Shown: one piece after another, positions 16,388 through 41,387 of the stretch
Position numbering within the stretch: position 1 is the first letter of the stretch
Layout: the number at the start of each line of letters is the position of its first letter
Assembly (NCBI GenBank): GCA_964534305.1
Contig: CAZHPR010000002.1
Span: 27,986 to 91,985, forward strand
DNA length: 64,000 nt
Reading direction: 5' to 3'
Source of the DNA: an uncultured Candidatus Saccharibacteria bacterium
GTDB taxonomy: Bacteria > Patescibacteriota > Minisyncoccia > Phycocordibacterales > WO2-35-19
Program-made: the position numbers and the translations under genes
Notes under the pieces: generated by a model
The model's database searches: none
What the model saw: the letters and a program-made list of their open reading frames with translations, nothing else
What the model was told of the DNA's origin: nothing

Positions 16388-18034
<1,647 letters not shown>

Positions 18035-18276
18035 GGAACTACCTCACCCTTCTTCTCGCTTAAGCAGCTACCTCATCCCCAGCCCTTCCTTACAGGAACT
18101 GTCCACTCATTGGATTTTTATTAAAAAATCTCAATGAGCCTTACGAAGCTCCAAGTATTCGCTTCTCACCCCTTGCAAAGGGGAAGGGAGAAGAGAAAAA
18201 CAATGTATTTTTTGGTACCCCCTCTCCTCTTGCAAGGAGAGGGGGATAGGGGGTGAGGTAGATTTCATAGCTTCAT

Positions 18277-18307
18277 GAAAAAACGGCTTATTTAAGCCGT
18301 TTTTTGA
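18277..18307 (+). terminator. intrinsic terminator after groEL (aaaaaacggcttatttaagccgttttttg)
   Basis: GC stem with a T-tract; the A/T tracts are symmetric, so it is bidirectional-capable. Confidence 0.7.
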
Positions 18308-18336
18308 TACTTACTCCAAACAAAATGAAATTTCCC

Positions 18337-18364
18337 TTGACAAAAAATACAGTTATGCTATACT
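18337..18364 (+). promoter_or_regulatory. strong sigma70-like promoter TTGACA-16-TATACT
   Basis: Consensus -35 element and a near-consensus -10 element immediately upstream of a high-GC block. Confidence 0.6.
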
Positions 18365-18371
18365 TATATAC

Positions 18372-18735
18372 AGATGGTTCGACGGAACCTTCCGTACGAC
18401 TCTCTAAGCTTCGTGTTTAGAGAGAAGTACAACACAGTGCGCGCGCAATAGCGCGGCGTTCTGGGGAATCCGACACCCGGTTGATGTTTTAGGGCTCGGA
18501 CACGTCCCGTGCAAAGGACGCCGCATAGTCCCCGCTTTCGCTAGCCGGTTTTTTATCGGTTGGCCGGCAGCGTCGCGAGCGGGTTGGTGGGGCCGCCTGA
18601 GGCTGTGCCCCTTGAGGCCGGTGTGCGGATGTGGAGATCGTCGCAGGCTCCCTTCCGCCACCGGCTCGAAAGTTCTTTTAAGATAATATGATCGCCACTC
18701 ACAATCATTCATTTGGGGTTGAGTGGCGGTTTTTC
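18372..18735 (+). ncRNA. unidentified structured RNA (~365 nt, high GC) with its own promoter and terminator
   Basis: GC content is far above the genome average. It is flanked by a promoter (18337-18364) and a hairpin plus T-tract terminator (gccactca...tgagtggcggttttt, ~18696-18735). The only ORF across it is an R/P-rich artefact on the minus strand. Identity not established. Confidence 0.45.
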
Positions 18736-18794
18736 TTTTTATAATCTATTCTTTTTAATTTTTATTTTTGCATTTTTAATTTATAATTATCCCC

Positions 18795-19313
18795 ATGGAT
18801 ATTTTTGCACACGCTGCTTGGACCAATATTGTTTTTTACAAAAAATACAAGAATGAAAGATTGAACAGGTTCTTAGCAATAATTTTTGGAGTCTTGCCTG
18901 ATCTTGCTTCTTTTGCCCCCGTTTTTATTTACGGGATTTTTAGTCGCAAGGAATTTTTTGATCTTATAGGTTCAAATATCTGGGTGGTCAACTTTGCCAG
19001 CGAGTCTTACAAATACACTCACAGTATAGTGGTTTTTGTTTTTGTAGTTTTGGTAATTGCGGTAGTCAGAAAATTTTTGAACAAAAATCTAATCTACTGG
19101 CCAATGTTTGGTTGGGCTCTCCATATTCTAATTGATATACCCACACATAAAAATTTCTATGAGACTCCGTTTCTTTTCCCTCTTTCTGGTTATAAGTTTG
19201 GGCACGGTATCTCTTGGGGGCACCCCACCTTTATGATAATCAACTATTCGGTGCTTGCTCTCTTCTATATTGCCTGGGTTTTGTATAGAAATAAAAGGTT
19301 AAGTAGACCTTGA
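18795..19313 (+). CDS. membrane protein, possibly a YdjM/DUF457-like metal-dependent hydrolase
   Basis: 4-5 predicted TM helices with conserved His residues (HAAW, HILIDIPTH). Weak assignment. Confidence 0.35.
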   Translation: MDIFAHAAWTNIVFYKKYKNERLNRFLAIIFGVLPDLASFAPVFIYGIFSRKEFFDLIGSNIWVVNFASESYKYTHSIVVFVFVVLVIAVVRKFLNKNLIYWPMFGWALHILIDIPTHKNFYETPFLFPLSGYKFGHGISWGHPTFMIINYSVLALFYIAWVLYRNKRLSRP

Positions 19314-19514
19314 CATTTTTTTTGGTTTTTGTATTATATACGCAGTCTCGCCCTTGAGCCCAATCGACGGGCCGTCCCGGGGCGATAGGAGAGGACCTTA
19401 CCCTCCGAAGGGGTCCTCTCCCCGCGCGCGCGGTCTGTGCATCTCACCTCCCTCCAAGGTGACACAGTCGCGCGCTTTTAATTTGCCTATTTTTTGTGAT
19501 ACAATACAGCCATT

Positions 19515-41044: not shown

Positions 41045-41380
41045 GTTTCCTTTCCGGATGGTTACTCCTCACTATAAAAATGGTGGGGGGAGGAAAGTCC
41101 GAACACAGCCCTATTTTTTAGGGAGCAGGTAATGGGTAACACCCATCGGGGTAATCCTAGAGATGCGAACAGAAACGACCCGGTTAAGTCCGGCTGAAAC
41201 GGCTAAATTCTTATCTCTGTGCAAGGCCGTACTCAAGTAGCAATACTTGTTTGTGCCGCTAAAATCTTTAGACTTGTTTTAGATTTTATCTTGAGCCTGT
41301 CGAAAGATGTGAGGTTGTCGGCAACGACAATCCCAGATAAATACCATTTAAACAGAATTCGGCTTATGAGAGAGGAGACC
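41045..41380 (+). ncRNA. rnpB: RNase P RNA (bacterial type A-like)
   Basis: P4 strands GGAGGAAAGTCCGAACAC and ACAGAATTCGGCTTAT. P1 pairing GGTTTCC/GGAGACC. An upstream TTGCAA-17-TAGAAT promoter and a downstream terminator at 41388-41420. Confidence 0.85.
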
Positions 41381-41387
41381 TAAAAGT

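Follow-up and report, generated by a model that had tools for sequence, protein, structure and literature searches.

A structured RNA gene of an apparently undescribed family in the groEL-ydjM spacer of a Paceibacteria (CPR) sub-clade

The window considered here, the whole 64-kb stretch of DNA that was analysed, contains between groEL and ydjM a self-contained, GC-rich, non-protein-coding unit of ~365 nt at positions 18337–18740, referred to below as the RNA unit. Past the end of groEL at 18034 come palindromic repeats rich in GC, then a bidirectional terminator hairpin (Table 1). This hairpin accompanies the RNA unit and precedes the promoter in L081, L087, L093 and L121 also. The repeats, of the CTACCTCACCCC..TTGCAA..GGGGTGAGGTAG type, fill the post-groEL spacer at 18035–18260 of the window and at 2450–2570 of L093, which is another species; L081 and L086 have in their place another long hairpin element, AAGCCGCAAAATTG...CAATTTTGCGGCTT. 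The post-groEL spacer is an indel hot spot. A conserved A/T-rich element directly 5′ of the −35 box is UP-element-like and may act as such.

An earlier reading made from the DNA by itself (the sequence-only reading) had described an independent transcription unit for a structured RNA, with a near-consensus TTGACA-16-TATACT promoter after the groEL terminator, a ~365-nt segment of raised GC content and a closing stem-loop with a T-tract. Each of these features has held up. The promoter is the single site in the 64 kb that fits TTGACA-N16-TATAMT with zero mismatches, and the RNA is predicted to start at ~18371/18372, inside CAGAU. The GC content is about 0.60–0.62 at 18400–18699 compared to 0.396 for the window; measured over 120 nt, the GC content of the window is highest, at 0.68, in the island of the RNA unit together with 19311–19510. 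In the terminator, AUCGCCACUCA (18691–18701) is paired to UGAGUGGCGGU (18720–18730) and followed by UUUUUCUUUUU; it was overlooked by a simple terminator scan because its loop is longer than 8 nt. The minimum free energy (MFE) of the + strand was −164.9 kcal/mol (z = −6.95). Since the − strand also folds well (z = −5.87), the strand was assigned from the promoter, the terminator and U-G pairs, which in the 3′ module described below are compatible with the + strand only.

The sole long open reading frame across the RNA unit, an Arg/Pro-rich frame of 102 aa on the minus strand (18404–18712), had been taken for an artefact, correctly as it turned out. It has no Pfam match, and between two strains its frame is broken by indels of 4, 25, 1 and 2 nt. 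Because Pfam has no match and none of the indels between strains has a length divisible by three, the RNA unit is judged to be non-coding and a protein-coding reading was rejected. A protein-coding homologue, which the sequence-only reading had named as grounds against an RNA, was not found by Pfam, and the unit is conserved in relatives. Short ATG frames at its 5′ end and tail are not conserved among the homologues.

Table 1. Positions of features in the window and of a promoter cassette in metagenome contigs
Feature	Position	Strand	Remarks
Bidirectional terminator hairpin ending groEL	18278–18305	+	A-run, CGGCUU/AAGCCG stem, T-run
Conserved A/T-rich element AAAATGAAATT, directly 5′ of −35 box	18322–18332	+	Identical in window, L087, L093 and L096
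Sigma-70-type promoter TTGACA-16-(TGC)TATACT	18337–18364	+	11/12 score, TG extension
5′ hairpin H1, GGUUC-GACG-GAACC	18376–18389	+	5 nt past predicted start
Hairpin H2, GUAC..CUCUCUAAGC-UUCGU-GUUUAGAGAG..GUAC	18394–18430	+	Predicted fold
Central GC-rich hairpins, hypervariable	18437–18612	+	Not alignable between lineages
Helix H3, GGCCGGUG-GCGGA...UCCGC-CACCGGCU	18616–18666	+	Covariance model R1 match 18613–18741, 58.9 bits
Single-stranded A/U-rich linker CGAAAGUUCUUUUAAGAUAAUAU	18667–18689	+	Conserved GUUCU and AUAUGA/AUAUAG motifs in alignments
Intrinsic terminator	18690–18740	+	11-bp stem, 18-nt loop with conserved AUUCAU, then T-run
ydjM −10 box/ATG region	18782–18797		Same position in L086, L087, L088, L093 and L140
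RNase P RNA, bacterial type A	41046–41382	+	87.5 bits, E = 5e-27
Cassette CTTGACAAAATAATTCACTTGTGTATACT-N6-CAGATTGAAA	Contigs L102, L104-L106, L109, L110, L112, L115-L119, L124, L125, L128, L130-L132		

The groEL of the window has at most 69% identity to GTDB species representatives, all of them labelled Paceibacterota, Parcubacteria or Minisyncoccia, and the organism is therefore a CPR bacterium. No homologue of the RNA unit was present downstream of 14 CPR groEL loci from GTDB; the lineage is narrow. Since these groEL loci carried nothing similar downstream, the product of ydjM, a 172-aa YdjM/PF04307 membrane protein, was used as the anchor, and its relatives were traced to contigs. The gene order secG / groES-groEL-[spacer]-ydjM-(lemA)-grx is conserved. 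Homologous RNA units occupy the same groES-groEL-[RNA]-ydjM slot in L081-83, a strain variant of the window; in L121, a close relative whose unit runs off the contig end; and in L087, L140, L088 and L093-95, the YdjM proteins of which have 83%, 75%, 72% and 70% identity to that of the window. The units range from about 205 nt (L088) to 365 nt and have in common the promoter, the 5′ hairpin and a 3′ module of ~130 nt. The string CTTGACA-N16-TATACT-N6-CAGAT was found in every homologue with a promoter recovered complete; the exception is L140, whose contig does not reach the −35 box and which has TAGAA in place of CAGAT.

Comparison of the window with L087 by nhmmer gave E = 1.5e-8, and a profile HMM of the 3′ part matched all members with E = 1e-19 to 1e-31. 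A covariance model (CM), R1, was built from L088 and L140 only, so that the window sequence was not in it; the 3′ part of the window nevertheless matched (Table 1), as did L093 (71.6 bits), L081 (51.7 bits) and L087 (18.5 bits). L096 and L139 agree with the window in slot, promoter and layout, yet were not detected by the CM, and the slot of L137 holds a unit of only ~85 nt. As homology of these three is not demonstrable by profile HMM or CM, they are treated as positional analogues. In L139 the positional analogue is preceded by a further GC-rich structured stretch at 2433–2700, in which TGCTATAAA may be a −10 box, and the spacer of L139 may therefore hold two RNA units.

When metagenomes were scanned for the promoter pattern, L121 and L123 were the sole additions, the remaining matches being unrelated promoters. 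A near-identical promoter cassette with differing downstream sequences recurs on some 18 metagenome contigs, several of which come from the same samples (Table 1); this cassette is a repeated, highly conserved promoter of some other low-GC organism or element. On L123, a different low-GC contig, a unit of ~410 nt with a GC content of 0.60 directly follows uvrB (about 730–300, − strand). Its promoter is of consensus type, its start is CAGAUG and its terminator is strong; it matches no Rfam family and is a marginal match to the CM of the 3′ module (21 bits, E = 0.03). As far as can be judged from these comparisons, the RNA family is undescribed and so far limited to one Paceibacteria (CPR) sub-clade, where it always lies in the groEL-ydjM spacer.

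In no member does the MFE fold have a closing stem; each is a chain of hairpins. The 5′ hairpin, H1 in the window, starts no more than a few nt past the start of the RNA, and its stem is preserved by compensatory changes, GGUUU/AAACC in L121, GAUAGU/ACUAUC in L087 and AGAUG/CAUCU in L088. A G to A change in H2 of strain L081 converts a G-U pair to A-U, and the GUAC closing stem of H2 is retained in L087 with a different interior. Among the central hairpins, that at 18531–18583 has a shorter replacement in a conspecific strain, in which its CCCGCU/AGCGGG base is retained. The loops of the upstream hairpins and that of H3 both have UCGA-type motifs; intramolecular kissing between them was no better than in shuffled sequences (z 0 to +1.6).

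The 3′ module consists of the long GC helix H3, an A/U linker with GUUCU, and the terminator hairpin with its AUUCAU loop. The apical loop of H3 is semi-conserved (GAUCGUCG in the window, GGUCUUCGAUAAAC in relatives), one of its pair positions is C-G, U-G or U-A across the homologues, and the GC-rich helices have stem bases conserved in sequence, CCGGYG/CRCCGG. The linker may serve as a seed or as a binding segment. In a model-derived alignment of the module, which was fitted to the structure and comprises six sequences, two of them nearly identical, 92.6% of the cells were paired compared to 37–58% in slid controls, and 11 of 30 pairs had changed on both sides compared to 0–4 when the partners were slid. 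None of 500 column shuffles reached the observed covariation score. For the terminator hairpin alone, changes on both sides were seen in 5 of 11 pairs, with 98% of cells paired, and a register set by hand agrees, giving the variable H3 position and five covarying terminator positions. These statistics are thin, since only five lineages are confidently homologous. Among the identities that the sequence-only reading had listed was a lineage-specific RNA, and the homologues at the same locus in related genomes, with compensatory base changes in the 3′ module, speak for that choice.

The RNA unit differs in its occurrence among closely related strains. L086 and L087 have identical YdjM proteins and flanks that are 99.0–99.5% identical; the gene is present in L087 only, and L086 has 102 nt where L087 has 417 nt. 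L089, L099 and L101, with spacers of 45–83 nt, also have no RNA unit, and L090 has another gene in the spacer. From this absence at the locus in some strains, the RNA is probably dispensable and therefore not an essential housekeeping RNA, unless those genomes have a copy elsewhere.

Presence or absence within a species is also what might be seen with a non-functional or selfish insert, either a GC-rich spacer element that is transcribed or a remnant in decay, lying in an intergenic hot spot of indels, and the wide variation in length, with the ~85-nt unit in the L137 slot, and the palindromic repeats in the same spacer favor that explanation. It is nonetheless unlikely, since the promoter and 3′ module are conserved, with compensatory changes, across YdjM lineages of 70–83% identity. 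No further copies of the RNA unit were found in the 64-kb window or the fetched loci, and the filled and empty junctions of L087 and L086 have no target-site duplication; on these grounds a mobile element was rejected. A phage or viral origin was also rejected: blastn against phages gave nothing, and two pattern scans of viral contigs gave chance matches only.

The adjacency to ydjM, conserved in all homologues, and the succession on one strand of promoter, long structured RNA, terminator and, after ~55 nt, the ydjM ATG would be compatible with a cis-acting leader or attenuator, in which the strong promoter drives ydjM-lemA-grx and the structured RNA and terminator control read-through. Several observations make this quite improbable. 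In every locus, with or without the RNA, a −10 box (TATAAT, TATACT or TAATAT) lies 6–8 nt 5′ of the ydjM ATG, and the ydjM mRNA is probably leaderless, transcribed from its own promoter; a role of the RNA as a cis-leader is therefore disfavored. L086 lacks the RNA yet has the same YdjM as its conspecific L087, the RNA differs from an aptamer in being hypervariable over two thirds of its length, and there is no evident antiterminator alternative. A riboswitch or T-box leader was specifically rejected from the lack of an Rfam match, the hypervariable interior and the −10 box of ydjM itself. No obvious Shine-Dalgarno sequence is seen upstream of the groES, groEL, grx and hsp20 starts.

Comparison with known RNA families gave no assignment. 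A scan of the whole window with Rfam 15 at gathering thresholds found tRNAs only, and at E ≤ 0.01 RNase P RNA was the sole addition, lying where the sequence-only reading had placed rnpB (Table 1). Its 87.5 bits are below the gathering score of 100, and default Rfam annotation therefore misses RNase P RNA in this lineage. This divergent RNA still reaches that score in the same window, unlike the RNA unit against the tmRNA, SRP and 6S models. At 18200–18850, scanned to E ≤ 10, only weak matches to terminator-like models appeared, and in five homologous loci no known family was found at E ≤ 0.5. Identity with RNase P RNA was rejected, as there was no match at 18337–18740 and the RNase P RNA of the genome lies elsewhere. 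The large SRP RNA and the OLE- or GOLLD-like RNA that had also been considered found no support: SRP models, small or large bacterial, had no match at E ≤ 10, and the gathering and E-value scans were negative for OLE and GOLLD. The 6S, Y RNA and CsrB models matched neither the RNA unit nor its homologues. A 6S RNA was rejected also because the 5′ and 3′ ends form no rod, as in the MFE structures only 0–7 pairs join the first 40 nt to the final 40% of the RNA. A sponge of the CsrB/RsmZ type was rejected because GGA counts equal the shuffle means and 0–1 GGA per RNA is unpaired.

The tmRNA question deserves separate mention, since the sequence-only reading had pointed to a GGUUCGACGG string and an A-K-D-A-A-stop frame, GCA AAG GAC GCC GCA UAG, while declining to call a tmRNA. 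Both strings are indeed present, and with the tmRNA-like size and GC content they are what a divergent housekeeping RNA (tmRNA, large SRP RNA, 6S or a second RNase P) has in its favor. The frame is limited to the window and its strain variant, and neither string nor frame occurs in L087, L088, L093 or L140; the resemblance consists of chance matches without a counterpart in the homologues. ARAGORN, with standard and permuted forms, found no tmRNA in the window or in five to six homologous loci, there is no acceptor stem or T-arm, and the 5′ end is a local hairpin. A tmRNA was rejected, in keeping with the caution of that reading. With Rfam tmRNA, SRP and 6S models negative at E ≤ 10, a length range of about 205–365 nt and absence in a conspecific strain, a housekeeping RNA of any of these kinds is highly improbable. 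The RNA unit has the general features of a bacterial small RNA (sRNA) gene, namely an independent promoter, an intrinsic terminator, lack of coding capacity and conservation in relatives, and is a new family within that generic kind.

What might such an RNA do? On balance it is probable that the unit is a stable, structured non-coding RNA gene of an undescribed family that acts in trans as a regulatory sRNA. A trans-acting RNA fits best because of the promoter, the 5′ hairpin, the stable helices, the conserved 3′ domain with its several conserved single-stranded patches, and the dispensability. Our best guess as to its mode of action is a multi-hairpin base-pairing sRNA, RNAIII-like in design, with a protein-binding RNA as a close second. 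Transcription would begin at the near-consensus extended −10 sigma-70 promoter and end at the unit's own intrinsic terminator; contacts with mRNAs, or possibly with a protein, would be made by the conserved single-stranded loop and linker segments of the 3′ module; the main contribution of the GC-rich hairpins would be stability, and the 5′ hairpin would be protective. Duplexes of the linker with translation starts of neighboring genes were no better than shuffles (|z| ≤ 2), and nothing consistent across species was seen in such pairing. The high GC content and long conserved helix are unusual for a base-pairing sRNA and would suit a protein-binding RNA equally.

The RNA may instead bind, sequester or scaffold protein, as do 6S, Ms1, CsrB and Y RNA in principle, with the H3 helix, the H3 loop and the AUUCAU loop serving as a platform for a CPR protein. 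We hold this to be a possibility of lesser weight. High abundance, implied by the consensus promoter, stable GC helices with sequence-conserved stem bases, several separate conserved single-stranded patches within ~130 nt, the lack of an mRNA target among the neighboring genes, and apparent dispensability, as for 6S and CsrB, all favor it. Set against these are the lack of a 6S-like rod or closing stem, GGA that is not enriched, the failure of the 6S, Y RNA and CsrB models to match, and the lack of an evident repeated binding motif or a co-located candidate partner gene.

Between ydjM and lemA, at 19310–19480 (+), the window has a second GC-rich, sRNA-like unit. Its promoter, TTGACA-16-TATTAT at 19310–19337, is followed by ~135 nt with a GC peak of 0.68 and a GCGCGCGCGGUCUGUG...CACAGUCGCGCGC hairpin with a T-run; it matches no Rfam family. 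Strain L081 retains the unit, with one U-A pair of the terminator stem turned into C-G by compensatory change, and analogous units with CCUCC-type C-rich motifs in their loops follow ydjM in L088 and L093. One could imagine that a CPR-specific ribonucleoprotein has the 3′ module as its protein-binding platform and takes over, for example, the function of a regulatory RNA directed at RNAP or the ribosome, the hypervariable GC hairpins being tolerated expansion segments, and that with the 19310–19480 sRNA it forms a dedicated RNA-based stress regulon around groESL, ydjM, lemA, grx and hsp20 in these minimal genomes; this broader proposal is doubtful.

Literature searches found no described regulatory RNAs in Patescibacteria/CPR. 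The RNA unit is a concrete, well-delimited candidate for one, conserved and supported by covariation, and a second candidate adjoins it; both have consensus promoters and are set in a stress-gene cluster. GC islands in AT-rich CPR genomes are thus a workable route to such RNA genes. Given the narrow distribution, the variability and the apparent dispensability, the view of core CPR biology is unlikely to change.

With respect to known systems, the RNA unit shares with tmRNA (SsrA) a size of ~360 nt, a GC-rich composition in an AT-rich genome, a strong promoter and, in the window sequence alone, a short Ala-initiated frame ending in AA-stop. Unlike tmRNA, it has no tRNA-like domain, the frame is not conserved, the length is variable, and a conspecific strain does without it. 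Like 6S RNA and Ms1, it is probably abundant, structured and dispensable; unlike these it forms no rod with a central bubble, its ends are unpaired, and no Rfam 6S match was obtained. OLE, GOLLD, ROOL and raiA, which come from comparative genomics, are also structured RNAs with their own transcription signals, orphans whose function is likewise unassigned. The RNA unit is much smaller than OLE, GOLLD and ROOL, matches none of the models, is conserved over only about one third of its length and has a very narrow distribution.

RNAIII of Staphylococcus aureus, a series of hairpins several hundred nt long, has a promoter and an intrinsic terminator of its own. Conservation is highest in its 3′ domain, with the loop of the terminator hairpin, and its central part is variable. 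The RNA unit has no sequence or Rfam relationship to RNAIII, lacks the C-rich UCCC loops and the encoded peptide, and comes from a different phylum (CPR). It is like RNAIII in its length of several hundred nt, its own promoter and terminator, a series of hairpins that does not form a closed fold, a best-conserved 3′ domain that includes the loop of the terminator hairpin, and a variable center.
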